Source: an uncultured Bacillota bacterium
GTDB lineage: Bacteria > Sysuimicrobiota > Sysuimicrobiia > Sysuimicrobiales > Segetimicrobiaceae
Direction of reading: 5' to 3'
Assembly: GCA_963804645.1 (NCBI GenBank)
Contig: CAWDRG010000021.1
Coordinates: 1-49,695 of the forward strand
DNA: 49,695 bases
Positions 12,217 through 28,857 of the stretch are shown here, one piece after another (position 1 is the stretch's first letter; each line of letters begins with the position of its first letter). The notes beneath the pieces are model-generated. The model did not search any database. It saw only the letters and a list, made by a program, of their open reading frames with translations, and was not told where the DNA came from. The position numbers and the translations under genes are program-made.

Positions 12217-12822
12217 TTGGCACGCCTGAGCGTCGTTGGCATTGGCGGGTCGCTGGCACGCGTATCGAGTAGCTTGGCGGCGCTGCGCATCGCCGTCGAA
12301 GGCGCGGCGGACGGGGACGTGGAGACGCGCGTGCTGGATCTCCGGGCGCTCACATTACCCATGTTCGATCCCGATCTCACGGAGGTCCCGGCGCCGGTCG
12401 CTGCGTTCTGTGACACGGTCTACGCGGCGCATGGGCTCGTCTGGAGCAGCCCGCTCTACAACGGCACGATCAGCGGGGCGTTCAAGAACGCGCTCGATTG
12501 GCTGCACGTGCTTGGCGACCGCACCCCGCCGTTCCTGACCGACAAGATCGTCGGGTTGGTCAGCACGGCCGGCGGTGTGCACGGGTTGCAGGCGGTCAAT
12601 ACGATGGAGTTTGTCGTCCGATCGCTGCGCGGGTGGGCTGTTCCGCTCGTCGTGCCGATTCCGCGGGCACCGGCGGCGTTCGACAATGCCGGACGGCCTC
12701 ACGATCCCCAGCTCGAGACGCAATTGCGGCAACTCGGGCGCGAGGTCGCCCGCGCCGCGAGGCAGATGGCGACGCACGGCGTCTGCGATTATTCCGACCC
12801 ACTGGTCACCGTGAGCGGCTGA
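12217..12822 (+). CDS. NADPH-dependent FMN reductase family oxidoreductase
   Basis: MARLSVVGIGGSLARVSSS...SSPLYNGTISGAFKNALDWL flavodoxin-like FMN reductase motifs; GGAGGTGA RBS. Confidence 0.7.
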   Translation: MARLSVVGIGGSLARVSSSLAALRIAVEGAADGDVETRVLDLRALTLPMFDPDLTEVPAPVAAFCDTVYAAHGLVWSSPLYNGTISGAFKNALDWLHVLGDRTPPFLTDKIVGLVSTAGGVHGLQAVNTMEFVVRSLRGWAVPLVVPIPRAPAAFDNAGRPHDPQLETQLRQLGREVARAARQMATHGVCDYSDPLVTVSG

Positions 12823-12950
12823 CTCTTGCGGGATCTGCGCTCGCGGCACATGAGGGGGCGGGACGGCGTCCGCTCACCCCATGCGGACGAGCCACGGGGA
12901 TAGGGCGTGGTAGCGGGGCTGGCGGTCGTGGGTGACGCGCAGGGTGAGTC

Positions 12951-14630
12951 GTGACCGGGGGGATGGAAGGACGGGTGGGAATCGGCGCGCGGCACGGAGG
13001 TCCTAACGCTGCTGGTGGGGCGCCCGCCGAAGCAGGCAGTTCTCCTTGGAGTGCGTTCCACCACACCGCGTTCACTGTGGTGTGGACGGCGACCGTCGTG
13101 TCAAACATCGGGACGTGGATGTACAACGCGGCCTCGGGCTGGCTGATGACGACCCTGAATCCTGATCCGCTGATCGTCTCGCTGGTCCAAGTGGCCGCCA
13201 CTCTGCCGGTGTTCCTGTTCGCGCTGCCGGCCGGCGCGCTCGCGGACATCGTCGATAAACGCCGGTTTCTCATCGTGGCAGAAGGCGCGACGACGGTAAT
13301 TGCGGCGGTGTTCGCGGCGGTGGTGGGACTCGGTCTGGTGAACCCGGAGCGGCTGTTGCTGTTTGCATTTCTCCTTGGGGCGGCCCAGGCCGTGGCGGCT
13401 CCGGCTTGGCAAGCGATCGTGCCGCAACTTGTCCCCAAGCGCGACCTGCGATCGGCCGTGACGACTAATAGTATCGGCATCAACATCAGCCGCGCGGTGG
13501 GCCCAGCACTCGGCGGCGTGGTCATCACTGCAGTGGGAATGGCCGCGACGTTCTGGCTCAACGCGGTCAGCAATCTTGGCGTTCTCGGCGCCCTGGTGTG
13601 GTGGCGCTCCCCGCAACGGAACAGTAGCCGGCTGCCCGTCGAGCGGTTCAACGGCGCGATTCATGCTGGGTTTCGCTACGCTCGGAACAATCCACACCTG
13701 CGCGCGACGTTGGTGCGCGCGGTGGCGTTTTTTCTGTTTGCCAGCGCGTATTGGGCCTTGCTGCCCCTCGTGGCGCGTCGCCAGGTGGCCGGCGGACCCG
13801 AACTCTACGGGATTTTGTTGGGCGCGATCGGCGCCGGTGCGGTGGGCGGGGCGTTCTGGCTGCCCCGGCTGCACGCCAGATTGGGACCCGATCGGCTCGT
13901 GGCCGCCGGTACGCTTGGGACGGCTGTCACGCTCGCGCTGTTCGGGCTGGCTCGCCACCCCGTAATTGTGCTGATCGGCAGTCTCGTGGCCGGCGTGTCG
14001 TGGATCGCGGTGTTATCGAGTCTCAACGTCTCAGCCCAGGTGGCGCTGCCGGAATGGGTGCGCGGACGCGGGCTCGCAATCTACGTCACGGTGTTTTTTG
14101 GGACCCTGTCGCTCGGCAGCGCGGCGTGGGGAGAAGCCGCCGCAGTCGTGGGCGTGTCCACCGCGCAGTTTATTGCCGCCGCGGGCGCCCTCATCGCGAT
14201 ACCCTTGACGTGGCGGTGGAAACTGCAAACTGGTGCAGGCATTGACCTCACCCCATCGGTGCACTGGCCCGCTCCAATCACCACACACGGCGTTGAGGGT
14301 GATCAGGGCCCGGTGCTGGTCACCCTCGAATACCGCGTGGATCCACGAAATCGTGAGGCCTTCCTGGAGGCCCTGGAGCGGCTGGGACACGAGCGCCGGC
14401 GTGACGGCGCGTACGCGTGGGGGGTATTCGAGGACACGGCCGACGAAGGACGATACTTAGAAACCTTTCTGGTGGAATCGTGGTTGGAGCACCTCCGCCA
14501 GCACGAACGCGTGACGAAGGCGGATCGTGTGCAGCAAGATGTCGTGCACCGGTTTCACACAGGAGGCACGCCGACGGTCACGCACTTTTTGGCTGCCGAG
14601 CCGAGCGAACCGCATGCGCGTCACGGGTGA
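12951..14630 (+). CDS. MFS transporter (EntS/MFS_3-like, 12 TM) fused to C-terminal antibiotic-biosynthesis-monooxygenase (ABM) domain
   Basis: Hydrophobic MFS body to ~aa 430, then LVTLEYRVDPRNREAFLEALERLGHERRRDGAYAWGVFEDT...ETFLVESWLEHLRQHERVT (ABM/ActVA-Orf6-like). Confidence 0.6.
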   Translation: MTGGMEGRVGIGARHGGPNAAGGAPAEAGSSPWSAFHHTAFTVVWTATVVSNIGTWMYNAASGWLMTTLNPDPLIVSLVQVAATLPVFLFALPAGALADIVDKRRFLIVAEGATTVIAAVFAAVVGLGLVNPERLLLFAFLLGAAQAVAAPAWQAIVPQLVPKRDLRSAVTTNSIGINISRAVGPALGGVVITAVGMAATFWLNAVSNLGVLGALVWWRSPQRNSSRLPVERFNGAIHAGFRYARNNPHLRATLVRAVAFFLFASAYWALLPLVARRQVAGGPELYGILLGAIGAGAVGGAFWLPRLHARLGPDRLVAAGTLGTAVTLALFGLARHPVIVLIGSLVAGVSWIAVLSSLNVSAQVALPEWVRGRGLAIYVTVFFGTLSLGSAAWGEAAAVVGVSTAQFIAAAGALIAIPLTWRWKLQTGAGIDLTPSVHWPAPITTHGVEGDQGPVLVTLEYRVDPRNREAFLEALERLGHERRRDGAYAWGVFEDTADEGRYLETFLVESWLEHLRQHERVTKADRVQQDVVHRFHTGGTPTVTHFLAAEPSEPHARHG

Positions 14631-14675
14631 TGGCGTCGAAGCCCCGCGATCCCCCGACGAGTGTTTTGAGCATTT

Positions 14676-14741
14676 CACCGGGAATTGGCAGGGTTCGTCT
14701 GGGCCATCGCCGACAGCGTGCCGAGCACCACCGCAGCGTAG
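14676..14741 (+). mobile_element. Solo remnant of an IS110-family element 3' end (related to tnp2)
   Basis: ~90% nt identity over ~62 bp to the last 62 bp of tnp2; translates HRELAGFVWAIADSVPSTTAA* vs tnp2 ARELAGFVWAIAHSVSSTTAA*. Confidence 0.6.
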
Positions 14742-14799
14742 GGGACCAATATCAAACGATGATACGCCGTATGGTTCTACTTAGCAGAGACTGACCATC

Positions 14800-14970
14800 A
14801 TGAGCTCGTTGCGTTTCGTCACGGGCTTGATGACGACAGAGGAACGCCTGCTATGCGCCGGATGGACTGAGGGGCTCATGTACGTGCCGTTCCCAGACGG
14901 TCACATCTGCCGCTCGGGACCGTCTCAAAATGCGCAGATCGATAGCTACTTCTATAAACACGAGCTTTGA
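14800..14970 (+). CDS. Small ORF (56 aa) in a low-GC islet
   Basis: MSSLRFVTGLMTTEERLLCAGWTEGLMYVPFPDGHICRSG...; region 14750..15000 ~50% GC vs ~70% elsewhere; below ORF-track cutoff. Confidence 0.2.
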   Translation: MSSLRFVTGLMTTEERLLCAGWTEGLMYVPFPDGHICRSGPSQNAQIDSYFYKHEL

Positions 14971-15001
14971 CCACTAGCGACGAATCTCGAACGTGGTTGG
15001 C

Positions 15002-15502
15002 TTATGGCGAACCGATGACACCGATTGCCTGCGCGTAACTGAGGTGGACACATTCGCCCGGCGAGCAGGCTGGCCCGCCCACGCCGCGCGGAATCGGCCG
15101 TGGGCCCAAGTAGCGCGCATCCACCTGTGCGTCTCCGTCAGAGATGAGGTAGTGACCCATGCGCGGATCGGGACCAGGAGCGCTGTAACGGTAGCGTGCG
15201 CCGGTGGGACTACCCGGAACGACCGGCACCATCTTTAGATAGGTCGGAGTGAGTGCGTCGAGCGTCTTTGGATACGCGTTTTGGTGGTCGACAGCGTACT
15301 CTTCGAGCGCCGTCGCGATCGTCTTGAGAAACGCGAGGTCGACGATCGTGTAGATGGCGCGCGGGTCGCGGCTGGCGTTCATGGCGCCCGCGATCTGCAC
15401 GTCGAGCAGGGGGACAGATGACATAGACCCTGCGGCACGCGCCCCATCCGACACGCACACAAGCGCGGCAATCGAGAGAACTGCGAATAGGCGTCGTCTC
15501 AT
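15002..15502 (-). CDS. Secreted hypothetical protein
   Basis: MRRRLFAVLSIAALVCVSDGARA signal peptide. Confidence 0.5.
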   Translation of the reverse strand: MRRRLFAVLSIAALVCVSDGARAAGSMSSVPLLDVQIAGAMNASRDPRAIYTIVDLAFLKTIATALEEYAVDHQNAYPKTLDALTPTYLKMVPVVPGSPTGARYRYSAPGPDPRMGHYLISDGDAQVDARYLGPRPIPRGVGGPACSPGECVHLSYAQAIGVIGSP

Positions 15503-15745
15503 GATGCTCTCCTTTATGTCGAACACAGTCTAAACCGGGATTTCCATTATCTGTGTCTGAACACCTTGTGTTGAAGGAGTCCATCTGGCTCTTCGGGGAC
15601 GAGTGTGACCGACGGCCCCATGAAAGGCTGTTCGGGCCCGTCCGAAACCCCCAATCCCGGGCATGGTCGCGCTGGCCACCGATTTCTCAGACACGTCCCC
15701 CTCGGCCTCCTTCTCGTCCTTGTTGGCCGCGACGATCGCCGGCTG

Positions 15746-17072
15746 CTACCCTGCGGGCCCCGGCAGCATCCCAAGCCGCCGCACGATCGCCCCGAACAGC
15801 TGCCGTGTCAGGTGCCCCTCCGCCAACAGCAACCAGTAGTATCGCGCGTGTTTCACGAGCCGGCCACCCGTTTTCATCAGCCGCTGCTGCAGACTCGTCA
15901 GCGACCACGTATCAATCCGTTTCGGCAGCCCGAACCGCCGCCACAAGTTGCCCAAGTTGTACGCGATCACGCTCAGCCACAGCCGCACCTCGTTCGCCCG
16001 GAACCGGTGGCAGCTCAGCCGCGTCATCTTCACCGCCTGCTTGCCTTCCTTGATCCACTGCTCCGCAGTCCCGCGCTTATTGTAGAACCGCACCACCGCG
16101 CGGCTGTCCGCCTCCAGAGTCGTCACGATGAACCCTACTCGCGGGAACAGTTCCTCGCAGTGGAACTCGATCTTCGCCACCACTCGCCGCGCGATCTTCC
16201 AACTCGCGGCCTGGTACCGGAAGCTCTTGTACCGGACCACCGGCTTGTGACTGGGGCGCCCGACCGGCCGCGTGAGCAACTCCGCGATGGCCCGCTCCAA
16301 TGTGTCGTTCGAGGGGATGCGAATGGCGTACTTTGCGTTCCGAGTCTCCAGGGCTTCGTAGAGCTCCGGCTTGGCAAAACCGGCATCGGCCCGGACGACC
16401 ACGTCCTTGCCCTCCCGCTGCTGCCGCTCGAGCTCGGGCAGCAACACCTGGTCCCACTCCTCGGCGCTATGAACGTTGCCCGGCCGCAACTTCGCCGCCA
16501 GACAGTCGCCCTCCCGATTGAACAGCAGCAGCGGATGATAGCAGGTCGACTCAAAGTGCCCGTTATAGGCGCTCTGCTCCTGTTGGCCGTAGACGGGGAT
16601 CTCGGTACTATCGATATCGAGCACCACCCGCTGCGGGGTGTCCATAGGATCCACCTTCGCGATCAACTCCCGGTTGATCGCGGCCAGCCCAGCGAGGTTC
16701 TCATCTTGGGTCAGCAGCTCTGTCTCGAAGGAGTGCGCCCGGGACGTCAGAGCGGCCCCGCGCTCCCAGAGCTGCTCGGCCCCGATCAGCCGGAAAGTTG
16801 GATCCTGGAGAGGCGTTCAGCATCGTTCACGTCCTCGTACCCCGCCAATCGGCGGTAGACCGATTGCCGGACCAAGTCGGCGAGCGGAACTGCGTGTTCG
16901 TGCCCCTCGGATCGGTCAAATGCTGCGCGATGAGTTCACTGAAGCCCAACCGCTCGTCCAGTTCGCGCACGAGGATCAGGCCGCCATCGGAGGTGACTCG
17001 GGATCCCTGGAACTCGACCTTCAACATCGGGTTGAACGAGAGCTGAAAGGGCTGGTTTTGGGCTTCACCCAT
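15746..17072 (-). pseudogene. IS1380-family transposase, second type, interrupted by at least two 1-bp deletions
   Basis: N-terminal FQGSRVTSDGGLILVRELDERLGFSELIA, then shift at ccgg->ccg near 16905, then shift at ccc->cc near 16790 (ERLS|QDPTFRLIGAEQLW), then DIDSTEIPVYGQQ...RADAGF...YNKRGTAEQWIKEGK. Confidence 0.65.
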
Positions 17073-17179
17073 CCGGTCCGCACCTCCCCAGCGTCGTCAT
17101 CGCGCGCAAACCCGCATCTATAAAGGCATTCGGCGCGTCCCCGCGGTTCTCCGTGCGCAATCAAATCGGAAATCTAGGT

Positions 17180-18130
17180 TCACTTTTCGAGCTGTTTCCG
17201 GATGGCCAACAATTCTCGACGGCGCTTGGCGTCGACCTTGGGGTACGCCATGTCGAGGCCCTCGAGCGTCGTGACAAGAATCTGGGAGACAATCAGCCGG
17301 GCATTGGCTTTGTCGTCGGCGGGAACAACATACCATGGGGAACCGTGCGTGCTTGTCGCGGCGAGGCAGTTCGAATAAGCTTTCATATACTGCTTCCAGT
17401 ACTTCCGCTCCTGAATATCCGCCATGCTGAATTTCCAGTTCTTCTCCGGCTCATCGATCCGCGCTAGAAAGCGCTTTCGCTGCTCCGTTTTCGACAGGTG
17501 GAGGAAGAACTTGATAATGCGGGTTCCGTTCGCGTGCAAGTGTCTCTCCCAATCCACGATCGAACGGTAGCGGTCGCGCCAGACTGCCTTGTCGTCTTGC
17601 GGGGCGTCCGGGATCCCTTCGGCGTGCAGCAGTTCGGGATGCACGCGGACGATCAGGACTTCCTCATAGTAGGATCGGTTGAAGATGCCGATCCGTCCTC
17701 GCTCCGGGAGTCTCACATTGGTGCGCCAGAGAAAATCATGCTGCAGTTCGTCGGGGGTGGGTTGTTTGAAGCTGAAGACTTGGACGCCCTGGGGATTAAT
17801 CCCGGACATCACATGTTCGATGGCCCCGTCTTTGCCGGCCGCATCCATCCCCTGAAAAATCATCAGCACGGCATAGCGGTTGGACGCGTAGAGCAGCTGC
17901 TGTCGTGAGCGCAACCGCATGACGTGCTGCTCCAGAAGCTTGCGATAGTCTTTCTTCGACTGGTACACGGGCGCGACGCTGGTCGGCCACTGTTTGAGGT
18001 TGACCTCGTCTCCTTCCCGCACGCGAAAGGCGTGTGGGTCGATTTTCATGGGTGCTTGCGCGTCGGCCCCTTCGCGTTCGAAACCCTCCGGAGGTGCCTG
18101 GGATGGCTTGACCTCGTTCGGTGTCATGGG
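17180..18130 (-). CDS. ppk2: Polyphosphate kinase 2 (PPK2)
   Basis: [11 protein letters not shown] Walker [30 protein letters not shown] lid motif; start at MTPNEVKP. Confidence 0.8.
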
Positions 18131-18580
18131 TGCGCGACCAGGGAGGGGCCTTTTGGTGTCATGTCCCCGGCATCTCCAGCCTGAGCGTCGGCCATGCTCA
18201 TCCCTCCTGGGCTCGCAGCGGGTCGATCGGGCGGTCACAACGCGGTCGCGATCGGGTTCGTGTTGGCGCTTGCGTCGACGGCCCGGTGCAGATCAGCCAA
18301 CTGGATGCGGTCGCCGGGACGCGCGCTCCGGCCGGAATCGCCTCCGCCCCGCGCGTCCAGCGCCCCGCCGCTCAAGATTCTCTTCCCTTCCGTCCACTCC
18401 CTATGCGGAACCCCAATGCGACCCGGGCTCGGCGGCCGGCGCCGAGATCGGCCGTGCGTCGGCGGCGTGCGCGCAGACGTTGGGTAGCGGGTCGCTCGTG
18501 CGCCCGGAATTGACACCAGCACCTGGGGCTGGTACATGTGTCTTGTACCACCTAGAGCGCGTACGACGGCGGAGAACGAC

Positions 18581-19228
18581 ATGCCCGTCATCACCGGCGC
18601 GATGGAAGACTACCTCAAGGCGATTTACAAGCTGCAGCAGGACCGTGGTTCGGTCTCAACGTCCGAACTGGCGGCAGAGCTGCACGTGGTCGCGGCATCG
18701 GCCACCGCCATGGTGCAGCGGTTGGCCCGATTGAAGCTCGTGTCATATCATCGATATCATGGACTTCGGCTGACCGGAGCGGGCCAGCGAATTGCGCTCG
18801 AGACGATTCGGCACCATCGGTTGATCGAGCTGTACCTTGCACAGCATCTGGGGGTCAGTCTCGATAAGGTGCACGGCGAGGCCGAGAAGATGGAGCATGT
18901 GCTCTCGGACGATGTGGAACTTCGGATGGCTGCCGCGCTCGGCAATCCCGCCGCAGACCCGCACGGCGACCCCATTCCGTCGGTCGACGGAACCATACGG
19001 GACGTTCGCTATCCTGACGTGGCCGCGTTTTCACCGGGCACCGGGGGAGTGGTCGCGAGGGTCAGCGATCGAGATCCCGGTGCGCTTCGGCGGTTGGCGG
19101 AGCTCGGTGTCCTGCCCGGTGTCAGGCTGAAAGTTGTGGCCCAGCGCCGGAATGGTTGCCAAGTTGAGATCGACGGACGCCGGGTCATGTTGCCGCGGGT
19201 GCTCTGCGGGAGCGTGTACGTTCAGTAG
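18581..19228 (+). CDS. DtxR/IdeR/MntR-family metal-dependent transcriptional regulator with C-terminal SH3-like (FeoA-type) domain
   Basis: MPVITGAMEDYLKAIYKL...VSTSELAAELHVVAASATAMVQRL HTH, metal-site region, C-terminal VVARVSD...GVRLKVV. Confidence 0.8.
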   Translation: MPVITGAMEDYLKAIYKLQQDRGSVSTSELAAELHVVAASATAMVQRLARLKLVSYHRYHGLRLTGAGQRIALETIRHHRLIELYLAQHLGVSLDKVHGEAEKMEHVLSDDVELRMAAALGNPAADPHGDPIPSVDGTIRDVRYPDVAAFSPGTGGVVARVSDRDPGALRRLAELGVLPGVRLKVVAQRRNGCQVEIDGRRVMLPRVLCGSVYVQ

Positions 19229-19384
19229 GGCGTTGATGCACCGCGCATCTGTCCCCGCACGCGCGTGCTAATCTTGCTCCACGCCCGCTGCGATCACGCA
19301 ACGGCCCATCGAACCGTATCAAGGGATCGCGTGATGCCGTGTTCACACACGCGCCGGGCGTAGACTCGGACCGGCCCTGGACAC

Positions 19385-19420
19385 TTGACATACGCAACAT
19401 ATTTTAGTATCGTCTAAAAA
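19385..19420 (+). promoter_or_regulatory. Candidate promoter (TTGACA ... TAGTAT) overlapped by 18-bp palindrome TTTTAG-N6-CTAAAA; putative DtxR-family operator upstream of mntH
   Basis: AT-rich island in GC-rich DNA, 230 bp upstream of mntH start; perfect 6+6 inverted repeat 19403..19420. Confidence 0.4.
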
Positions 19421-19647
19421 AGATTCGCTGCCCAGGCGCTTCGTCAACGCCACGGTTGAGACGGTAGGAGATTACGCGGGGGGCTGCGTCCTCGACGGTG
19501 GCGGCATGTGGGCAGGGTGACTGAGCCTGCGTCTCGTCGAGATTCGGGTGATTGTGGTGGCGCGTGACTTGGGACGACGCGGTCGGGGAACGGAGTGGGC
19601 GGTGAGGCGACGTCAGGCTCCGTCAACAGCGCACTGGAGGGGGTCCC

Positions 19648-20973
19648 ATGGCACGGTCGTACGCCGCGGTGGCGGCTGACATCAGCACCTTGCCTCACCC
19701 GAAGGTCCAACTGGCCGCGCGCGACGCGATTGAGGGGAAGACCCGGGGACTGCGCGCCATTCTGCCCTTCGTCGGGCCGGCGTTCATCGCGAGCATCGCC
19801 TACATCGATCCGGGGAACTTCGCGACGAACATTCAGGGTGGGGCGCAGTTTGGGTATGCTCTCCTGTGGGTCGTCTTGATGGCGAACCTGATGGCCATGC
19901 TGATTCAGGGGCTGGCGGCCAAGCTCGGGATCGCGACCGGCCTGAACCTCGCCGAGATGTGCCGCGCCCGCTTCGCCCCCTGGGTGTGCTATTGTCTGTG
20001 GATCACGCAAGAGATCACGGCGATGGCGACCGACCTGGCCGAGTTCCTCGGCGCGGCGATCGGAATCACCCTGCTCACCGGCATGCCGATGTTCGTGTCG
20101 GCGTCGATCACCGGCATCGCCGTGTTCATGATCCTAGGGCTCCAGGGCAAGGGGTTTCGCCAGCTCGAAGCGTTTATCGGCGGGTGCGCGTTCGCGATCG
20201 CGGCGTGCTACGTCGTCGAGACGTTCCTCGCCAAGCCCGATTGGGGGCAGGTCGTGTTTCACAGTTTTGTCCCCAGCCTGCCGGGCAATGACGCCGTGCT
20301 GCTGGCGGTGGGCATCGTCGGCGCGACGGTGATGCCCCACGTGATCTACCTGCACTCAGGTCTGACCCAGGGCCGGATCGTCCCGGCGTCTGAAAACGAA
20401 GCCCGGCGCATCTTCAACTTCAACAAGCTCGACGTCATCGTGGCGATGAGCATGGCGGGACTCGTCAACATGGCGATGCTGTTCATGGCGGCAAAAGTGT
20501 TCCATTTTACCGGTCACGCCGACATCGCCGACATCAATTCTGCGTACAAGACGCTGGTCCCGCTGTTGGGCGGCGCGTCGGCGCTGGTCTTTGCCATCTC
20601 TCTCATCGCGTCGGGGATCTCGAGCTCGCACGTCGGGACGATGGCGGGCCAGGTGGTGATGCAGGGATTTGTCAACTTTCGGATCGCGGTATGGATCCGA
20701 CGGCTCGCGACGATGATCCCGGCCCTGGTGGCCATCTATCTGAATCTCAACCCGACGATGACCCTGGTGGTGAGTCAGGTCGTGCTGAGCTTCACGCTGC
20801 CGATCCCGGTCATCACGCTGGTCATGTTCACGCGCAATCGCGCGATCATGGGGAAGCTCGTCAATCACCCCGCGGTGACGGCGCTCGCGATCGCCTGCGC
20901 CGCGGTCATCCTGCTGCTGAACTTCGTCCTGCTGTACCAGACCCTCGGCGGACCGCTCCCGAAGCTGGGGTGA
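19648..20973 (+). CDS. mntH: NRAMP-family Mn2+/Fe2+ transporter MntH
   Basis: Canonical TM1 DPGN (AYIDPGNFATNIQGG) and TM6 MPH (ATVMPHVIYLHS) motifs; 11-12 TM. Confidence 0.85.
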   Translation: MARSYAAVAADISTLPHPKVQLAARDAIEGKTRGLRAILPFVGPAFIASIAYIDPGNFATNIQGGAQFGYALLWVVLMANLMAMLIQGLAAKLGIATGLNLAEMCRARFAPWVCYCLWITQEITAMATDLAEFLGAAIGITLLTGMPMFVSASITGIAVFMILGLQGKGFRQLEAFIGGCAFAIAACYVVETFLAKPDWGQVVFHSFVPSLPGNDAVLLAVGIVGATVMPHVIYLHSGLTQGRIVPASENEARRIFNFNKLDVIVAMSMAGLVNMAMLFMAAKVFHFTGHADIADINSAYKTLVPLLGGASALVFAISLIASGISSSHVGTMAGQVVMQGFVNFRIAVWIRRLATMIPALVAIYLNLNPTMTLVVSQVVLSFTLPIPVITLVMFTRNRAIMGKLVNHPAVTALAIACAAVILLLNFVLLYQTLGGPLPKLG

Positions 20974-21111
20974 CCGGGCGCGCGAACGTGGTGCGGAGGG
21001 GATGCGGATGCGCGGGCTCGATCGTCCGAACCGGACCCCTGTGTGGGGGACCCCACGGTAGGAACGTGTTTGCCTCTGCGGCTGGGGTGCGCCCGCACCG
21101 GGGGTGCGAGA

Positions 21112-21127
21112 TCTAATTATAATTAGA
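21112..21127. promoter_or_regulatory. Perfect 16-bp AT-rich palindrome TCTAATTATAATTAGA; candidate metalloregulator operator
   Basis: Isolated AT-only palindrome in GC-rich intergenic DNA, 185 bp upstream of the NRAMP-related gene at 21310. Confidence 0.4.
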
Positions 21128-21309
21128 CCCGCGGGAACGCCACCCTTCATCAGACGCCGCGGCTGAAGCCCGCGCGGAGCCGCAGCCACGGCGGCGGTCA
21201 GCCTGCCCCCGACGACGCCCGCGCACGGTCCCACGCAAGGTGTTCACGACCCCCCGGTGGAAATTCGGAGCCAGCAGTTTGGCGTGTTGATGGAGATCCC
21301 CGTCACGCG

Positions 21310-22620
21310 ATGAGCGACAATCAATCGCCGGCGCCTCCTGTGCCTGCGGTCCATCCCAAGTTCCGCAAGATCATCGGCGAGCGAAAGCCTGGTTGGCGGC
21401 GCTCGATCTGGATCTTTTGGGCGCTGCTGGGCCCCGGATTTGTCGCTACGCTTGCGAACAACGATGCGGGTGGCGTCATTTCCTACGCCGTGACCGGGGC
21501 GCTCTTTGGGATCGGCCTCTTCATCCCGTTGGTGATTTGCCTTGCCCCCTTGGCATTTACGATTCAAGAGATGAGCATGCGCCTCAGCGCCGTCACGCAA
21601 GAGGGATTCTCCAAACTGGTCCTGCGCCGGTACGGACGATTCTGGGGCTACTATCACATCACGACGCTGGCGCTCGAGAACCTGCTCACCCTCGTGACGG
21701 AGTTCATTGGGATGACGGCGGGGCTCATCCTGTTGGGCCTGCCCCTCTGGCTCAGCGACATCAGCTGTCTCTTGCTGATCGTGACGTGCGTCCTCCTCAC
21801 CGGCTACTGGACGAAAGAGCGAGTCGCCCTGTGCGTGGGAGCGCTCAACGTCATCTTTCTCGTCGTCGCCGCCATGACGCACCCGAGCGCGGCCGCCATC
21901 GGGCACGCCTTCGTGGCGTGGAACGTTCCGGCGGGCCGTCACCCCAGTGTGCTCTGGTACGTGATCGCCACCGTGGGGAACGCCGTCGCGCCGTGGATGA
22001 TCTTCTTTCAAGGGAGCGGGACGATCGATAAAGGGGTGACGTCGCGCGACCTGCGGCTGAGCCGCATTGACACCGCCGTCGGCAGCGTCATCCAGGTCAT
22101 CGTGGCCGCCGGGATCATTGTGTGTGGTGCCGCACTCGTCGGGCACGTGCACGAGCTCAGCCAGTCCGGTCCTGCCCAGATCATCCAGTCGCTCGACCGC
22201 TCGGTGGGGCGGTGGCCCGCCATCCTCTTTGGCATCGGTCTCTTCAACGCCGGCTTTCTCGCCTCGATTACGGTGTCGCTTTCCTCGTCCTGGAGCATCG
22301 CGGAAATGTTTGGGTGGTCGAAGAGCCTGGACGACAAGATCTCGACGGCCCCGGGGTTTTACGCGAGCTATATCGGCAGCCTGGTCCTCGCGGCGCTGGC
22401 GGTGCTGCTCCCCCATCTCCCGCTCAACTTGATTGCCGTCGTCACGCAGGTGATCGGTGGGATCCTCATGACGCCGCTGTTGGTGTTCATGGTGTTGATG
22501 ACGCGCGATCGCGCCTTGATGGGGGAGTACAGCACAGGCCTGTTGGCGAGCCTGTGGAGTTGGGCCATGGTCGGCGTGCTTATTGTGTTGACGCTGGCGA
22601 CGTTCTGGAACACGCTCTAG
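21310..22620 (+). CDS. NRAMP-related (SLC11) divalent cation transporter, non-canonical metal site
   Basis: LLGPGFVATLANNDAGGVISYA (DAGG instead of DPGN) and NAVAPWMIFFQGSG (APW instead of MPH). Confidence 0.7.
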   Translation: MSDNQSPAPPVPAVHPKFRKIIGERKPGWRRSIWIFWALLGPGFVATLANNDAGGVISYAVTGALFGIGLFIPLVICLAPLAFTIQEMSMRLSAVTQEGFSKLVLRRYGRFWGYYHITTLALENLLTLVTEFIGMTAGLILLGLPLWLSDISCLLLIVTCVLLTGYWTKERVALCVGALNVIFLVVAAMTHPSAAAIGHAFVAWNVPAGRHPSVLWYVIATVGNAVAPWMIFFQGSGTIDKGVTSRDLRLSRIDTAVGSVIQVIVAAGIIVCGAALVGHVHELSQSGPAQIIQSLDRSVGRWPAILFGIGLFNAGFLASITVSLSSSWSIAEMFGWSKSLDDKISTAPGFYASYIGSLVLAALAVLLPHLPLNLIAVVTQVIGGILMTPLLVFMVLMTRDRALMGEYSTGLLASLWSWAMVGVLIVLTLATFWNTL

Positions 22621-23947
22621 CAGGCCGCGGAAAAAACGTGTTTATGACGAATCATCGTGCCTGGTTCGAGAGTGATCATGCCACCTGAAGCTCCGCGGAG
22701 CTGCTTGCGCGAGTTCCGCGCGCTCCGTGCGACCTCGCCATCGCACCGAGGGGTGGCATCCTCATGCGAGGGCCTGTTGGAGATTGCGGATCCGCACCAG
22801 GTTGTAGATCGCACACGCAAACACGAACATCCAGTCCACCCGGTCGGTGCTGCGATGGTGCAGCTTGCGCATCAGCCCGATGGTCTTCAGCCAACCAAAG
22901 ATTTCTTCCACCCGCTTGCGGATGCGTTGGCTGATCTCATAGCCGGGGTGCCGGGTGGTCCGCAGATCGACGGCACTGCGCCGCTTGCTGGTGTTTTGGG
23001 CAATGTGCGGTGTGACGTCCAAGTCGCGCAGCGCTTGGACGAATTCCGGCGTGTCGAAGCCTTTGTCCGCGCCGACCGTCACGCGGCGCTCGCCGGCCAC
23101 CTGCTCGAGCAGCTCTTCCGCCGTGTCCCGTTCCGCCGTGCCCGTCGCCGCGGTCGCTTGGGCCCGCACCACCAAGCCATTGCGGTTCTCCATCAGCACA
23201 TGGCCCATATAGTACAGCTTCGCTTCCCGGCCGTGGCCTTTGCGCTGCAAGCGCGCCTCGGGATCCGTCGTCGATTGATGCGTGGCATTGCTGCGGTGTT
23301 GGCCATGAAAGTTGACGGTTGGGTTCCCCGGATCATCCGGCGGCGGCTGGTCGGTCGGGTCCTCGTCCTTGGGACGAAAGCTCTTCAGGCCCGCCCAGGC
23401 TTCAATCAGCGTCCCGTCGACGGTGAAGTGTTCCATCGACAAGAGGTCCCGCTCCCGCGCTTGGGCCAGCACGCGCGTGAAGAAGGCTTGCGCGATATCG
23501 CCATCCAGCAGGCGCTGCCGGTTCTTCGTGAACGTCGTCGGGTCCCAGACCGGCTCGTCCATGTTCAACCCGACGAACCAGCGGAACAGCAAGTTGTAAT
23601 CCAGTTGCTCCATCAACTGCCGCTCACTGCGCACCGTGAAGAGCACCTGCAGCAGCAAGGCCCGCAGCAGTTTCTCCGGCGGGATCGAGGGGCGGCCAAT
23701 CTGCGATAGAGTTTGGCGAACGTGGGCGACAACTCATGCAGCACCGCGTCCACCATGCTCCGGATCACGCGCAACGGATGGTCCTGCGGGACGCGCGCTT
23801 CCGGGGAGAGGTAGCTAAACATGCCTTCCTGCTGCCGATCGTCTCCGCGCATCGTGGCACCTCCGAGGGAGGAGTACGAATGAGGGTGCAACGCGACAGA
23901 GTATCATTCTATATGAACATCCAAATACCTGCTTTTTCATCATCCTG
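22621..23947 (-). mobile_element. IS5-family insertion sequence (1327 bp) flanked by CTAG target duplication
   Basis: CTAG at 22617..22620 and 23948..23951; imperfect terminal IRs beginning CAGG...; left CTAG includes the TAG stop of the upstream NRAMP gene. Confidence 0.65.
22762..23852 (-). pseudogene. IS5-family DDE transposase with a 1-bp deletion frameshift
   Basis: N-terminal MRGDDRQQEGMFSYLSPEARVPQDHPLRVIRSMVDAVL...FAKLY, then frame change tattcg->tatcg at ~23655, then GRPSIPPEKLLRALLLQVLFTVRSERQLMEQL... Confidence 0.7.
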
Positions 23948-23996
23948 CTAGGGCGAGCGGTGATGCGTCCGCGTCCCGGTCGTGGCGCCGCGCGGA

Positions 23997-25586
23997 TCAG
24001 GCGATCGGCAGGTCCTCGGTCGCGCTCCGCGCCCGCCGGAGGAGCAGCACGAGCGGGAGGACGCACAGAAACACCACGCCAATGGTGCCGAAAACGTAGT
24101 CGAACGCGACGACGGCCGCCTGCTGGCTGATGAGGCCCTGCAGCGCCGCGAGCGCCTGCCAGTGTGCGGTCGTCGGGTCGCTGCCGCGCGCGACGAATGC
24201 CTGCTGGTACGTCTGCCACCACTGCCTGAACTGCGGATTGTAGATCGACGCGTACTTCACCAGATTGGCACTGACGGCGGTGATCTTTTGGTTGAGGAGC
24301 GTGATCACGATCGCCGTGCCGAGGCTTCCCCCCAACTGGAACATCAGGTTGAAGAGGCTCGACGCGCTCTGCATCAGCCGTTTCGGGATGGTGGAGAGCG
24401 CCGACGTCGCCATCGGGACGAACATGCACGCGAACCCGACCCCCTGAAGCACGAGCGGTCCGACCAGCTGGACCTCGCTGCTGTTGGTCGTGAAGTGGGC
24501 CATGAGGAAGCCGGAGATGCTCGCGAGGACCAGCCCCAGCGGCAGCAGGACGTAGGGGCCGACCCGATTGTACAGCGCTCCGGCGAGCGGCATCATCAGC
24601 ACCATGACGAGCGACCGCGGCATCAGCGTCAGCCCCGCCTGTGTTGCGGTGTATCCGAGCAGAGTCTGTAGGAACAGCGGCATGAGGATCAGGCCGCCGA
24701 ACAGCGTGCCGCCCAGGACCGCGCCGATGAGCGCTCCAGACGCGAACGAGAGGTTCCGGAAGATGCGCAGGTCGACCGCCGGCGCGCGCTCCCGGAGCTC
24801 CCAGTAGATGAACGCGGCGAGGGCCACGACGAAGAGAATCGCGAGCGAGACGATCAGTGCGCTCTGGAACCATCCGTCGTTCTCGCCCTCCTCCAGCAGG
24901 ATCTGCAGCGACGCGAGGGCGGTGGCCAGGAGCCCGATCCCGATCCCGTCGATGCGCCGAAATCCCTGGGCGCGCATCCAGGGCGGGTCGACGATGAACT
25001 GGGTGCCGAGGAAGAGCGCGATCGCTCCAATCGGCAGGTTCACGAAGAAGATCCACGGCCATGAGAGATTGTCGGTCAGCCACCCGCCGAGCGTGGGGCC
25101 GATCGCCGGTCCGAGCAGGATGACCATCCCGAAGAGGCCCATCGCTTGGCCCTGTTCCTCGGGCGGGAAGGCCTCACGGGTGATCGCCTGGGAGGTCGGC
25201 GCCAGCACCCCGCCGCCGAGCCCCTGAAGGACGCGGAACAGGATCAACTGTCCAAGCGTCCGCGAGATCCCGCACAACATTGACGCGACGGTGAAAATCC
25301 CGATGGCGATCAGATACATCCGCTTCCGGCCCAGGATCGAACTGAGCCACGTCGTGAGGGGCATGACGATGACGAGCGCGATGAGGTACGAGGTGCTGAC
25401 CCACGTGACCTCCTGTGTGGTCACGCCGTAGGTCGCTTGGATGTGGACCAGGGCGACGTTCACGACGCTCGAATCGATCGCGCCCATCAACGCGCCCGCC
25501 ATGACGGACAGGACGACGACCCACTTATTCGGCGCCGTCCATTCGCGGCCCGCCGCTCCGCTGATGACCCCTGCCTGTGCCGACAT
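23997..25586 (-). CDS. MFS transporter, DHA2 (EmrB/QacA) family drug:H+ antiporter
   Basis: 14-TM MFS; LGRKRMYLIAIGIFTVASMLCGISRTLGQLILFRVLQGLGGGVLAPTSQAI motifs. Confidence 0.8.
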   Translation of the reverse strand: MSAQAGVISGAAGREWTAPNKWVVVLSVMAGALMGAIDSSVVNVALVHIQATYGVTTQEVTWVSTSYLIALVIVMPLTTWLSSILGRKRMYLIAIGIFTVASMLCGISRTLGQLILFRVLQGLGGGVLAPTSQAITREAFPPEEQGQAMGLFGMVILLGPAIGPTLGGWLTDNLSWPWIFFVNLPIGAIALFLGTQFIVDPPWMRAQGFRRIDGIGIGLLATALASLQILLEEGENDGWFQSALIVSLAILFVVALAAFIYWELRERAPAVDLRIFRNLSFASGALIGAVLGGTLFGGLILMPLFLQTLLGYTATQAGLTLMPRSLVMVLMMPLAGALYNRVGPYVLLPLGLVLASISGFLMAHFTTNSSEVQLVGPLVLQGVGFACMFVPMATSALSTIPKRLMQSASSLFNLMFQLGGSLGTAIVITLLNQKITAVSANLVKYASIYNPQFRQWWQTYQQAFVARGSDPTTAHWQALAALQGLISQQAAVVAFDYVFGTIGVVFLCVLPLVLLLRRARSATEDLPIA

Positions 25587-25810
25587 CCGTCGATCGCTCT
25601 CCGTCCGCCGCTCGGCCGGCCGGGCCCCGACGTGCGCCCCGCCGCGCCGTGACGTGTGTGCCGCGTCTGCCGCCGATCTCCCGGGCGGCCGTCCCTACGT
25701 CTAACGACGGACGGGGCCGCTCGACTCCCGCGGAGACGACCGGTATGCTCGGAGGGTGGCGCGTCCGCGCGCCCCGCGCAATGACGTGATTCTGGGGGGG
25801 AGGAAGGCCG

Positions 25811-26923
25811 ATGTCAAGGTCGTCGGCGGCGCTGCCGCGCACCGCAGAGGTGATCGCGCGGGGCATCGCTGACGGGCTCCACCTCGGAGTTCAGCTGTAC
25901 GTGTCGGTAGATGGGGTCCCCGCGGCGGACCTGGCGATCGGCGACGCGCGGCCCGGCGTCCCGCTCGCTCCCGACAGCCTCATGCCGTGGATGTCCTCGT
26001 GTAAGCCTGTGGGCGCGGTCGCGGTGGCCCAACTCTGGGAGCGGGGCGGGCTGCAGTTGGACGACCCGGTCTCCCGGATCATCCCTGAGTTCGGTGCGCA
26101 CGGCAAGGCTCTCGTGACGATCCGGCATCTGCTGACCCATACTGCGGGTTTCCGGTTCATCGAGCCCGGGTGGCGGGACGTGTCGTGGGACCAGCTTATC
26201 GCTGAGATCTCATCGGCGCCGCTCGAGCCGGGATGGGTGCCCGGGGAGCGCGCGGGCTACCATCCGTCGTCGTCCTGGTACATCCTGGCCGAGATCGTGC
26301 GGCGCGTGGATGGCCGTCCGTTCGATCGGGTTGTCCGGGAGGAGATCTTCGAACCGCTCGGGCTCCTCGATTCGTGGATCGGGGTGCCCCAGGAGCGGCT
26401 GCGCGCGTACGGGGATCGAGTCAGCGGCTTCTACGATACCCAGGGGGATCTCCCGCGCCCGAACCTGTCCGACGCCGAGGCGCGCGGCCTTCCCTATCGG
26501 CCGGGAGGGAGCGGGCGCGGTCCCGTGCGCGAGCTTGGACGGTTCTATGAGGTGCTGCTGGCGGGGGGGAACCGCGGCGGGGTCCGGATCCTCTCTCCGC
26601 AGACGGTCGAAGCGCTGACCGCGGGGCACCGCATCGGCATGTTCGATGAGACGTTTCGCCATGTGATCGACTGGGGGCTCGGCTTCATCCGCGCCTCCAA
26701 CCAGTACGGCCCCGACACGGTACCGTACGGGTACGGGCCGCACTGCTCGCGCAGGACGTTTGGCCACAGCGGCTACCAGTCCTCGGCGGCGTTCTGCGAT
26801 CCCGAGCGACGCCTCGTCGTCGCATGGGCGGCGAACGGGACGCCGGGGGAGGTGCGCCACCAGGCCCGCGCCGTCGCGCTCAACGCGGCCGTCTACGAGG
26901 ATCTGGGGCTCGTGGCCCGGTAG
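25811..26923 (+). CDS. Serine hydrolase, beta-lactamase/esterase (class C-like) family
   Basis: S-x-x-K motif (MSSCKPVGAVAVAQL), LLTHTAGF; 3' end overlaps convergent encapsulin gene by 31 nt. Confidence 0.7.
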   Translation: MSRSSAALPRTAEVIARGIADGLHLGVQLYVSVDGVPAADLAIGDARPGVPLAPDSLMPWMSSCKPVGAVAVAQLWERGGLQLDDPVSRIIPEFGAHGKALVTIRHLLTHTAGFRFIEPGWRDVSWDQLIAEISSAPLEPGWVPGERAGYHPSSSWYILAEIVRRVDGRPFDRVVREEIFEPLGLLDSWIGVPQERLRAYGDRVSGFYDTQGDLPRPNLSDAEARGLPYRPGGSGRGPVRELGRFYEVLLAGGNRGGVRILSPQTVEALTAGHRIGMFDETFRHVIDWGLGFIRASNQYGPDTVPYGYGPHCSRRTFGHSGYQSSAAFCDPERRLVVAWAANGTPGEVRHQARAVALNAAVYEDLGLVAR

Positions 26924-27804
26924 CGCGTGCGGCGTGTGCTCGGAGCCTTCGCCGAGGCCGGGCGACGTGCCGCCCGACCCGGGCCGCGGGACGCCTCCGT
27001 CTTCCCGGACGCCGCCAGTGCCACCGCCGCCTCGGCGGTCAACATCAGGAACGTGAACGTCTCCTGCAGGTACAGCCGGACCGCGGTCTCCGTATGGGTG
27101 AGGTAGCCGATCGAGACGTCTTGGCCGATGTGGAGGTCGAAGTCGCCGCCGCGGGTGGTGAGCACGAATGCGCCGGTGATGGCCGGGGCCCAGATGATGT
27201 CGCCGTCCAGGAGACGCTGCACGTGCGTCAGGACCGGGTAGCCGTGGTCACTGGTCTCGCTGAGGTGCGTGTAGGCGGCCGCGCTCAGCACGAGGGCGTA
27301 CGGCCCCTCGACGCCGGCGAGCCGCAGCCGCGCCAGGGCCTGGGCGATTGCGCGGGGAGCTTCGCGCGCGTCGTCGGGGAGCGGGACCTCGGGATGGCTG
27401 CTCACCGACCGAACGCCCCCGATTCCCGCCGCGGGGTACCCCTCGAACACGGCACGGTCCTCGGCGAAGGCGATGGCGCGGGCCGCGTCCTTCAGCGGCT
27501 GCCAGTCGGAGTCCTTCGCGCCGCGCTCCACGTCGTCGACGGCCTGGCGGGCCAGTTCGAAGGGGACACGGAGCTCGACGAGCGTCTGCGCCTGGCGCTG
27601 CAGGGCGCCGATGCCCTCCCCGGGCGAGGGGAGGGTCCTCACATGACCCGTGCCGACCGCGGAGAAGGCGACACCGTGCGGGCCATGCACGTCGACGACG
27701 CGGCGCGCGGCGAGATGGCGCTTCAGCGTGCGCGACGCCTCCTGCTCGATCTGCGCCCACGCGGCCTCCGAGACCGGAGCCAGGTCGCGGTGGAGATTGT
27801 TCAT
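26893..27804 (-). CDS. Family 1 encapsulin shell protein (Linocin_M18, HK97 fold) with ~38-aa basic C-terminal extension
   Basis: MNNLHRDLAPVSEAAWAQIEQEASRTLKRHLAARRVVDVHGPHG...LYLQETFTFLMLTAEAAVAL, then GKTEASRGPGRAARRPASAKAPSTRRTRYRATSPRSS; ATG overlaps DyP stop (ATGA). Confidence 0.85.
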   Translation of the reverse strand: MNNLHRDLAPVSEAAWAQIEQEASRTLKRHLAARRVVDVHGPHGVAFSAVGTGHVRTLPSPGEGIGALQRQAQTLVELRVPFELARQAVDDVERGAKDSDWQPLKDAARAIAFAEDRAVFEGYPAAGIGGVRSVSSHPEVPLPDDAREAPRAIAQALARLRLAGVEGPYALVLSAAAYTHLSETSDHGYPVLTHVQRLLDGDIIWAPAITGAFVLTTRGGDFDLHIGQDVSIGYLTHTETAVRLYLQETFTFLMLTAEAAVALAASGKTEASRGPGRAARRPASAKAPSTRRTRYRATSPRSS

Positions 27805-28857
27805 GCCGAGGATCCTCCTTTGAGCGAGCCGATGCCAAGCGAGCCATCGCCCGTCGGCGCGGGCGCCTGCGGCGGGGCGTGCGGGGGGCGTCGGGGTCTC
27901 GGAGTCGCTGTCCCCGGCCGTCTCGAGGAACGTGGCGGTCGGTACGAAGAACAGCGTGCCGGTGACGGCGCGGCTGAAGTCCAGCAGCCGATCGTAGTTG
28001 CCCGGCGGCCGGCCCACGAACATGTTCATCAACATCTGTTCGATCCGGCGGGGCGAGCGGGCGTACCCGATGAAATAGGTGCCGAACTCGCCTTTCCCCG
28101 CGTCGCCGAACGGCATGTTGTCGCGGACGATCTCGAGCTGCGTGCCGTCCTCGGTGATGGTCGTCAGCGCGTTGTGCGCGAACGTCGGCTTGACGGCGTC
28201 GTCCAGCTCGATGTCGGACAGCTTCGTCCGGCCGATGATGCGTTCTTGCGTCTCGGTCGGCAGCGCGTTCCACCCACGAAGGTCGTGGAGATATTTTTGG
28301 GTGATGACGTAACTGCTCCCGGCGAACCCGGCGTCCTCCTCGCCGATGATGGTGGCCTCGAGGGCGCCCTGGTCCACCGGGTTCTCCGTGCCGTCCACGA
28401 AGCCGATGAGATCGCGGTCGTCAAAGTACTTGAATCCGTGCGTTTCGTCCACGGGCGACACGGCGCCGCCGAGCCGCGTCATGATCTGCGTGGCCAACTC
28501 GAAACACAGGTCCATGCGCGTGGCACGGATGTGGAAGAGGACATCGCCGGGCGTGGCCACCGCATGGTGGGGCGTCCCCCGGATCTCGCGGAACGGATGG
28601 AGTTCGGCCGGCCGCGGCGTCCCAAAGAGCCGGTCCCAGGCATCGGACCCGAACCCCACCACGCACGAGAGGCGGCCTTCGAGGTCACGGAATCCCACGG
28701 CCCGCACCAGCGCTGCGAGATCGCGGCAGCACGCCAGGACCGCCGCACGGGACTCGGCGCCGGCGTGGATCGTCACGACCAAGAAGATCGCCGCGCTGGT
28801 CAGCGGGGATGCGACCGGCTGCTGGACGGCGGAGACCCTGTTCGAGTCTGCGGCCAT
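27801..28857 (-). CDS. Dye-decolorizing (DyP-type) peroxidase, encapsulin cargo; as sequenced it is frame-fused to the encapsulin gene
   Basis: GFVDGTENP motif; N-terminus AAIFLVVTIHAGAESRA; C-terminal targeting peptide ...APAPTGDGSLGIGSLKGGSSA* present but in the +1 frame after the G6 run 27883..27888; removing one G restores it and places the TGA stop over the encapsulin ATG. Confidence 0.8.

Follow-up and report, generated by a model that had tools for sequence, protein, structure and literature searches.

Contig CAWDRG010000021.1, analyzed here over its whole length of 49,695 bp (the window, which is an entire contig of a metagenome-assembled genome, or MAG), carries a DtxR-family regulator gene, mntR, the canonical transporter gene mntH and, beside it, a second Nramp-family gene, whose product we term P2; a third, P3, lies further along (Table 1). 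All open reading frames (ORFs) were found where a first-pass annotation, made from the sequence alone, had placed them, and the gene calls were checked against Pfam and NCBIfam models. The order PPK2–mntR–mntH–P2, in which PPK2 is a polyphosphate kinase gene, recurs in L086, a contig 93–99% identical to the window. P2 belongs to a group of proteins, here called the Asn clade, which is a conserved, uncharacterized subclade of NRMT-like transporters, mostly from Bacillota. On balance, we favor the view that P2, next to a native MntR/MntH Mn2+ module, is an H+-uncoupled uniporter of divalent cations that was probably gained by horizontal transfer and whose substrate is more likely Mn2+ than Mg2+.

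Table 1. Positions of the features discussed, in the window and (with L-numbers) in other loci, with the matches and remarks that go with each
Feature	Position	Strand	Evidence and remarks
IS1380-like insertion, DDE_Tnp_1_4 transposase (split)	14679..17179	-	Pfam; at the 3′ end of PPK2; missing from L086
PPK2-family polyphosphate kinase, ADP-polyphosphate phosphotransferase type	17180..18238	-	Pfam PPK2, 219 bits; NCBIfam NF042973, 504.7 bits against a cutoff of 450
mntR, DtxR-family regulator	18581..19228 (alternative ATG 18536)	+	PF01325 (Fe_dep_repress), PF02742 (Fe_dep_repr_C), PF04023 (FeoA, SH3-like)
mntH promoter TTGACA-17-TATCGT, overlapped by the predicted MntR operator	19385..19419 (operator 19402-19419)	+	Promoter scan, 10/12 matches
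mntH, canonical H+-coupled Mn2+/Fe2+ NRAMP transporter	19648..20973	+	NF001923, 545 bits against a cutoff of 430
Perfect 16-bp AT palindrome TCTAATTATAATTAGA	21112..21127	.	Contains TATAAT; 183 nt upstream of P2, in the 336-nt upstream region
P2, NRMT-like (Nramp-related) transporter, Asn subclade	21310..22620	+	Pfam Nramp (PF01566), 184 bits; MntH model, 77.5 bits against a cutoff of 430
IS5-family insertion, DUF772 + DDE_Tnp_1 transposase	22621..23947	-	Pfam; CTAG target duplication; missing from L086
P3, second NRMT-like transporter, different clade	43358..44662	+	Pfam Nramp, 242 bits; MntH model, 108.6 bits against 430
M-box beside neighboring Asn-clade/classic pair	L013:6529-6693, L015:6101-6265, L044:6518-6683, L025:7017-7184, L030:6347-6533, L006:5919-6090, L032:3878-4044(-)		Tandem in six, divergent in L032
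XRE+DUF1232 regulator, examples	L004:4005-4760, L009:4094-4888, L014:4096-4773		

MntH, its regulator and the identity of P2

Judged by its sequence, the window MntH is a canonical SLC11/NRAMP transporter. It carries DPGN on helix 1 and ATVMPH on helix 6, keeps all seven proton-pathway residues (E124, D131, E134, H232, H237, R352 and R353, in DraNramp numbering) and exceeds the curated cutoff of its NCBIfam model, in agreement with the canonical DPGN/MPH metal site that the first-pass annotation had described. Riboswitch control of mntH or of P2 was considered and rejected: Rfam gave no match in the window at gathering thresholds and, at E ≤ 10, only chance miRNA/snoRNA matches in 19200–21400, and the two leaders fold no better than shuffled sequences (z = +0.3 and +0.9).

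The regulator upstream of mntH, annotated as a 215-aa gene in L086, was correctly described at first pass as having the long DtxR architecture with an SH3-like C-terminal domain, its three Pfam domains including FeoA. NCBIfam equivalog cutoffs were not reached, the best model being a Thermus-type MntR (209 bits, below the cutoff of 350), and the closest PDB matches were 8pvt and 5zr4, which we take to be a Deinococcus DtxR-like protein and the MntR of M. tuberculosis, respectively. At the positions of DtxR Met10 and Cys102 the protein has Asp10 and Glu102, with Glu105/His106 kept, a type of pattern that Guedon and Helmann reportedly described in 2003 as marking Mn2+ sensors. Its domains and residues, together with the operator box described below, point to a Mn-type DtxR-family MntR.

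The candidate operator, TTTTAG-TATCGT-CTAAAA (TTTAG-N6-CTAAA), overlaps the mntH promoter. We compared it with 80 metagenomic mntH loci from soil and peat (L087–L166; 53–77% identity to the window mntH), which contain 34 occurrences of TTAG-N6-CTAA, essentially none of them away from promoter positions: each site lies at the mntH start or ~0.7–0.8 kb upstream, which is the mntR start where mntR precedes mntH. The consensus over these loci is a(G/T)TTTAG(G)-N-(C)CTAAAc/t. The window has a single TTAG-N6-CTAA, which starts at 19404 within the mntH promoter. When the window is compared with L087, whose intergenic regions cannot otherwise be aligned with its own, the box is the one stretch that is conserved. 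We consider this good comparative evidence for the predicted MntR operator. No MntR box was found ahead of mntR in the window. A different palindrome, GGTACA-N7-TGTACC (18533..18551), lies ~30 nt upstream of the mntR start at 18581 and spans the alternative ATG at 18536; it may be another control site or a chance match. Boxes of the form TTAG-N6-CTAA also immediately precede other Nramp-family genes at some loci with an Asn-clade gene (L084:11665 / L085:4620 and L006:8299), and the seven such boxes found across P2-family loci overall are at the level of chance.

P2 has the motifs D52-A-G-G55 on helix 1 and N224-A-V-A227-P-W229 on helix 6. These were checked by HMMER alignment to solved structures, by a 100-sequence MAFFT alignment in EleNRMT/DraNramp numbering and by an AlphaFold2 model of P2 (pLDDT 85.8, pTM 0.87), in which helices 1 and 6 are broken at the motifs (residues 49–52 and 226–228). 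All three checks agreed, and they confirm the earlier statement that the neighbor of mntH, with DAGG in helix 1 and APW in helix 6, is without the Met ligand. Among solved structures, P2 matched EleNRMT (7QIA) with an E-value of 2e-54, compared with 1e-9 for DraNramp, and Foldseek placed 7QIA first for the P2 model (TM-scores 0.78/0.84). P2 is 30% identical to EleNRMT, 25–28% to P3 and 21% to the adjacent MntH. At the positions of E124, D131, E134, H232, H237, R352 and R353 it has A, L, E, W, Q, K and S. Of the seven, P2, like EleNRMT, retains the E134 equivalent alone, and no titratable side chain is present at the other proton-pathway positions except the Lys in place of R352.

The first-pass annotation had named two outcomes that would overturn its account of P2, a Met lying one turn away from the motif and an ordinary MntH position in the phylogeny. 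P2 does have a Met at +3 from A227 (APWM); EleNRMT has one at the same place (APWMM), within a gap-free, near-identical stretch, and since NRMTs have Ala in place of the conserved Met (PMC8806188), the motif assignment stands. That Met and the Pfam Nramp match are what would speak for P2 as an ordinary MntH-type Mn2+/Fe2+:H+ symporter paralogue with a mis-assigned motif, which we regard as extremely improbable and, on the following evidence, as refuted. Neither P2 nor P3 has the canonical MntH motifs, and both remain far below the MntH cutoff of 430 bits (77.5 and 108.6 bits); P2 shares just 21% identity with MntH, aligns with EleNRMT over the motif without a gap and lacks the proton-pathway residues; and canonical and non-canonical Nramp proteins split in 200/200 bootstraps of a neighbor-joining tree, with neither gene product on the MntH side. 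The word paralogue, applied to P2 at first pass, is misleading: P2 and P3 are only ~20–25% identical to MntH and are not recent duplicates of it, and the nesting of P2 in a Bacillota-dominated clade makes acquisition more likely than duplication. The count of three SLC11 members is right, there being three PF01566 genes, among them the divergent third copy at 43358 (P3; DPCG / ATLTPY), and the two that had been left without a specificity can be narrowed to the NRMT-like branch by sequence, tree and fold, as the analogy with NRMTs drawn at that stage had suggested.

Measured against the published NRMT signature, DxxG–TxxA/T (PMC8806188), and the M-box riboswitch used as a marker to define NrmT (PMC4072509), P2 gave a mixed result. 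Its placement on the NRMT branch is indicated by the 7QIA E-value, the 200/200 split, its nesting among DAGG/TTIAPW sequences and its predicted fold; it has DxxG on helix 1 and Ala for the helix-6 Met (D52-A-G-G55, A227); and, at the sequence level, it has lost the proton-coupling residues. The helix-6 Thr (Thr224 of EleNRMT) is replaced by Asn224, and no M-box, a marker that is not universal, accompanies the gene. P2 therefore appears most like EleNRMT but departs from NRMTs in two respects, the defining helix-6 Thr and the non-universal M-box link. An exact-sequence look-up of the window P2 and P3 returned no record.

The Asn clade and its regulation

The Asn clade, i.e., the P2 family, was monophyletic in 200/200 bootstraps and nested among sequences with DAGG/TTIAPW (the classic group), which are paraphyletic around it. 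D[AG]GG and GN[AS]xAP[WF] were present in all of the 120 closest P2 homologues with a locatable motif (55–99% identity), so we take the P2 signature to be a conserved family trait and not a chance variant, and in the anchored alignment Asn at the 224 position was followed by Ala or Ser in 26/26 Asn-clade sequences. When representatives of clusters at 50% identity were searched exhaustively, ~16 of the nearest 150 had DAGG/NxxAP[WF], amid dozens of combinations of helix-1 and helix-6 signatures. Nineteen positions are fixed differently in the Asn clade and the classic group, including S58 (TM1b), N224/A225 (TM6a), G235 (TM6b) and G383 (TM10), all of them around the ion site; in the classic group Thr224 and Thr225 are invariant (100%), and every Asn-clade member has other residues there.

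Hosts of the Asn clade include Alicyclobacillus, Paenibacillus, Sporolactobacillus, Clostridium and Lucifera, and many hosts are acidophiles or acid-soil organisms. In a neighbor-joining tree of the clade, P2 and three other metagenomic sequences of high guanine-plus-cytosine (GC) content fell deep inside an otherwise Bacillota clade, and P2 is 70–75% identical to Bacillota Asn-clade proteins. These data fit a horizontal acquisition of P2, probably from Bacillota, with loss of its cognate regulator.

Rfam searches of 13 orthologous loci found M-boxes only beside other genes. With an M-box covariance model built from two Rfam matches and run on 86 loci and the window, an M-box was detected directly upstream of 12/36 classic DAGG/TTIAPW genes and of 0/50 Asn-clade genes (Fisher p = 8e-6). 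In seven loci (six from Bacillota and one from a Spirochaetota MAG), a riboswitch-free Asn-clade gene stands beside an M-box-controlled classic NRMT gene (Table 1), which looks like duplication followed by regulatory divergence. Enumeration of motifs ahead of Asn-clade genes returned the palindrome tGTTG[AC]-N7-[GT]CAACa, which occurs 35 times in 930 kb, with ~27 copies ≤1 kb upstream of an Asn-clade transporter; in Bacillota, this GTTGA-N7-TCAAC palindrome precedes the transporter gene, the regulator gene or both (L002–L047, L066, L084). The regulator in question is encoded by an HTH_3 (XRE) + DUF1232 gene, found beside the Asn-clade transporter in ~35–38 of ~47 Bacillota loci and in 0 classic-NRMT loci, and our literature search found no paper naming DUF1232 together with Nramp. 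These comparisons are evidence that the Asn clade no longer belongs to the Mg2+ riboswitch regulon and, in Bacillota, has gained a regulator of its own. Neither the XRE+DUF1232 gene nor the GTTGA-N7-TCAAC operator was found in the window. DtxR-like genes near Asn-clade genes were considered as a sign of Mn control and set aside as uninformative: L006 and L028 were the sole examples, and in L028 the DtxR-like gene is separated from the transporter by the XRE+DUF1232 gene, with a different Nramp-related gene on the other side. The gene context of P2 and P3 homologues varied, with no conserved neighbor and no MgtE-N-like partner.

This regulatory pattern bears on the possibility that P2 is a bona fide NRMT, that is, a Mg2+ uniporter expressed constitutively or under different control, with Asn224 doing the job of Thr224. 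The closest characterized relative of P2 is EleNRMT, and P2 keeps DxxG, the Met-to-Ala exchange, Gln380 (TM10) and the E134 equivalent, with the H+ pathway lost. Its 40% identity to the M-box-controlled paralogues, which neighbor Asn-clade genes in those seven loci, is what one would see for a high- and low-affinity pair acting on one ion, and in general coordination chemistry the Asn carboxamide oxygen commonly binds Mg2+. Against this stand the M-box counts, the replacement of Thr224/Thr225 in every clade member along with 17 other fixed differences, the different, dedicated regulator of the Asn clade, and the precedent of an M-box-less NrmT-like protein that acted as a Mn2+ transporter (PMC4072509). 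We consider a bona fide NRMT rather unlikely.

The first-pass annotation had treated the genes from mntR to P2 as a metal-homeostasis cluster, and as a conserved functional unit this cluster did not hold up, there being no P2- or P3-like neighbor of mntH in any of the 80 metagenomic mntH loci (mntR is directly upstream in the same orientation in 27 of them) and no MntR box belonging to P2 itself. The mntH–P2 adjacency is lineage-specific, and it ties P2 only weakly to the MntR–MntH module. The region upstream of P2 contains the palindrome TCTAATTATAATTAGA, which is unique in the window even when up to three mismatches are allowed (0 expected by chance), recurs among all fetched loci only in L086 and differs from the Bacillota GTTGA-N7-TCAAC operator; it is probably a repressor site on a P2 promoter. 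A second MntR box at this site was entertained and found unsupported, the inverse arrangement of half-sites occurring once in the 80 mntH loci compared with 34 true boxes. The palindrome is beyond the reach of footprinting because in the next relative, L082 (80% nucleotide identity), homology to the window starts only 74 nt before the P2 start codon. No terminator-like site was found between mntH and P2, so read-through into P2 from the MntR-controlled promoter is possible.

P3 and the substrate of P2

P3, which is ~23% identical to MntH, has the motifs D-P-C-G and A-T-L-T-P-Y and an Asp at the DraNramp E134 position; its residues at E124, D131, E134, H232, H237, R352 and R353 are I, I, D, Y, Q, E and G. 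HMMER matched it to 7QIA with E = 7e-61 (210 bits), compared with 5e-19 for DraNramp, and to 8ONT with 34.5 bits. The P3 family (the DPxG clade; P0148–P0239) was monophyletic in 200/200 bootstraps, with the signature DP[S/A/C]G / ATLTPY conserved. In most homologues the annotated protein begins at Met39 and is 38 residues shorter; Met39 may also be the start of P3. Down to ~44% identity, homologues came from uncultured MAGs and metagenomes only, the first named organism being Lebetimonas at 37%. No M-box was found at P3. A GC-only, perfect 11-bp hairpin, GGGGGTGCGCG tt CGCGCACCCCC (~43304..43329), precedes the P3 ATG by 28 nt and has no T-tract. An MFS transporter gene (44649..45884, +) shares 14 nt with the end of P3, an overlap suggestive of co-transcription; this pairing was absent from the P3 homologue loci examined.

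Plant NRATs, which are close to canonical plant NRAMPs, have DPSN on helix 1, AxxT on helix 6 and Tyr for His232 (PMC10115441). Compared with one of them (SiNRAT, PDB 8ONT), the P3 family shares the helix-6 A-x-x-T-P-Y, with Thr for Met and Tyr for His232, and many members share D-P-S on helix 1. P3 differs in having Gly where NRAT has Asn, and by sequence it is NRMT-like and only distantly related to NRAT. We therefore do not class P3 as an NRAT, and the likeness of the two sites would at best be convergent.

A further explanation is that P2 (and P3) carry some other cargo, whether Ca2+, Zn2+, Fe2+, Co2+/Ni2+ or a trivalent cation, with the XRE+DUF1232 protein as the matching sensor. It would fit with the dozens of helix-1/helix-6 signatures among Nramp-related proteins clustered at 50% identity, most of whose groups are uncharacterized (according to a 2026 preprint, entirely so save those with EleNRMT and MntG; PMC12873925), with the shift in Ca2+ permeability caused by binding-site mutations in EcoDMT and EleNRMT (PMC8806188), with the NRAT-like signature of P3, DP[S/A/C]G / AxxTPY, which lacks only the helix-1 Asn, exchanged for Gly (PMC10115441), and with the many acidophiles or acid-soil organisms among the hosts. 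However, we found nothing in regulation or gene context that points to any one other metal, neighboring genes differ between loci, and every NRMT-like protein assayed to date transports Mn2+. Another cargo thus seems to us quite improbable. A bolder proposal, which we consider unlikely though less so, is that the Asn clade is a distinct, NRMT-derived class in which a helix-6a Asn replaces the lost helix-1 Asn and confers a new selectivity, neither for Mg2+ nor for the soft metals of MntH; that the Bacillota XRE+DUF1232 protein is an unrecognized metal-responsive repressor acting on GTTGA-N7-TCAAC; and that the P3 clade (DPSG / AxxTPY) has a convergent, bacterial NRAT-like site of the Al3+ type, in acid-soil bacteria.

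In the model of an acquired Mn2+ uniporter beside the native MntR/MntH module, Mn2+-bound MntR would sit on TTTAG-N6-CTAAA, overlapping the mntH −10 element, and shut off proton-coupled MntH. P2 would work as an inward, proton-uncoupled uniporter like EleNRMT, serving auxiliary Mn2+ (possibly Mn2+/Mg2+) uptake; in this lineage its expression would start at a promoter of its own, guarded by the palindrome, or result from transcripts reading through from mntH. Between the unwound parts of helices 1 and 6, a widened site (Asp52, Gly55, Ala227, Gln380) would admit a divalent cation that keeps most of its hydration shell, and with Asn224/Ala225 in place of Thr224/Thr225 a carboxamide would face Asp52. 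We infer uncoupled uniport from the proton-pathway positions, which are non-titratable as in EleNRMT, a transporter that is not H+-coupled (PMC8806188). Our preference for Mn2+ over Mg2+ draws on the EleNRMT mutants, on a precedent in Acidobacterium capsulatum and on the regulatory split between the Asn clade and the classic group. T224A EleNRMT keeps Mn2+ transport and loses detectable Mg2+ transport (PMC8806188), and ACP_2976 of A. capsulatum, which is NrmT-like and without an M-box, fully rescued a Mn2+-uptake mutant and rescued a Mg2+-transport mutant only at millimolar Mg2+ (PMC4072509). For P2, Mn2+ would be only modestly more likely a substrate than Mg2+.

Several points weigh against this model. 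The M-box is present in only a third of classic NRMT-like genes, making its absence weak evidence for any one gene, and in most Bacillota the Asn clade is under a regulator without an assigned ligand. Asn is a good hard-oxygen ligand for Mg2+, and a T224N exchange need not abolish Mg2+ transport. Apart from the window, the near-identical L086 alone has mntH and P2 side by side, which makes genomic context a weak argument for a Mn role; P2 is without its own MntR box, and the half-sites of its palindrome (CTAA-N6-TTAG) are the inverse of that box. Horizontal transfer rests on tree topology and the 70–75% identity to Bacillota proteins, and the main tree is neighbor-joining (97 sequences, 405 columns, 200 bootstraps), not maximum likelihood.

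Nramp selectivity is explained by a few residues on helices 1 and 6, and among NRMT-like proteins only EleNRMT has been studied both structurally and biochemically. The Asn clade amounts to a natural experiment at Thr224, the position that decides Mg2+ transport, and one characterized member would inform ~1,000 annotations as 'NRAMP family divalent metal transporter' in Paenibacillus, Alicyclobacillus, Clostridium and soil MAGs. In the window itself, two of the three 'MntH-like' genes would be misannotated if all were labeled manganese importers.

Neighboring genes and comparison with known systems

PPK2 is divergent from mntR, as had been described, and its score exceeds the curated NF042973 cutoff; the real start may lie ~36 nt inside the ORF. 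None of the 80 other mntH loci has PPK2 adjoining mntR or mntH, and the order PPK2–mntR–mntH–P2 is confined to the window and L086. Two insertion sequences (IS) flank these genes. The IS5-like element is inserted precisely at the stop codon of P2, which it regenerates, and L086 continues straight from the P2 stop into what is position 23948 of the window. Comparison with L086 shows that the IS1380-like and IS5-like elements are recent, strain-specific insertions. A composite transposon carrying the cluster was considered and rejected, since the elements are of different families and L086, which keeps PPK2–mntR–mntH–P2, has neither.

The GC content is ~57–68% (mostly 62–66%) over 1..25000, compared with ~65–78% (mostly 68–73%) over 25000..49695. 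The low-GC half has five transposase genes, three of IS110 (747–4873) and one each of the IS1380-like and IS5-like elements, and could be an island, an IS-rich region or the product of chimeric assembly. A search with fumarase, as a clue to the host lineage, gave best named matches at 75–77% that are scattered among Chloroflexota, Nitrospirota and Cyanobacteria. On the minus strand at 26893..29505, a single ORF of 870 aa encodes a complete DyP peroxidase (Dyp_perox_N/C, residues 228–524) together with a complete encapsulin shell domain (Linocin_M18, residues 568–818) in the same frame. DyP cargo and encapsulin shell are usually encoded by separate genes, and this ORF may be a natural fusion or an artefact of assembly or frameshift.

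Among known systems, the window MntR resembles Mn-sensing DtxR regulators (5ZR4 and 8PVT, named by their depositors 'metal-dependent transcriptional regulator' and 'iron dependent repressor, putative', and ScaR, 3HRS) in its three-domain architecture, in Asp/Glu at the positions of Met10/Cys102 of Fe-sensing DtxR and in the palindromic operator over the mntH promoter; it differs in its subthreshold score with the Thermus-type MntR model (209 bits against 350). The window MntH agrees with clade-A MntH and DraNramp (PDB 8E5S and others) at every diagnostic residue, whereas P2 and P3 share with these proteins only the LeuT-type fold and the helix-1 Asp, being without DPGN, the Met, His232/His237 and the charged network of helices 3 and 9, at 20–25% identity. 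Like ACP_2976, P2 is an NRMT-branch protein without an M-box, which makes ACP_2976 a precedent for Mn2+ use in this branch; ACP_2976 is paired with an MgtE-N-domain-like gene, and no such gene lies beside P2 or P3.

The nearest system is that of EleNRMT from Eggerthella lenta (7QIA; PMC8806188) and NrmT of Clostridium acetobutylicum (PMC4072509), EleNRMT being the top sequence match of both P2 and P3 and the top fold match of P2. P2 and EleNRMT are alike in DAGG on helix 1, Ala for Met, Trp for His232, Gln on helix 10 and the E134 equivalent, and in non-titratable residues at the proton-pathway positions. P3 is further removed, with DPCG / ATLTPY and an Asp at the E134 position. P2 differs from EleNRMT in Asn224/Ala225 for Thr224/Thr225 and in 17 further clade-fixed positions, and the Asn clade as a whole differs from EleNRMT and NrmT in its M-box count (0/50) and in having another partner regulator in Bacillota.

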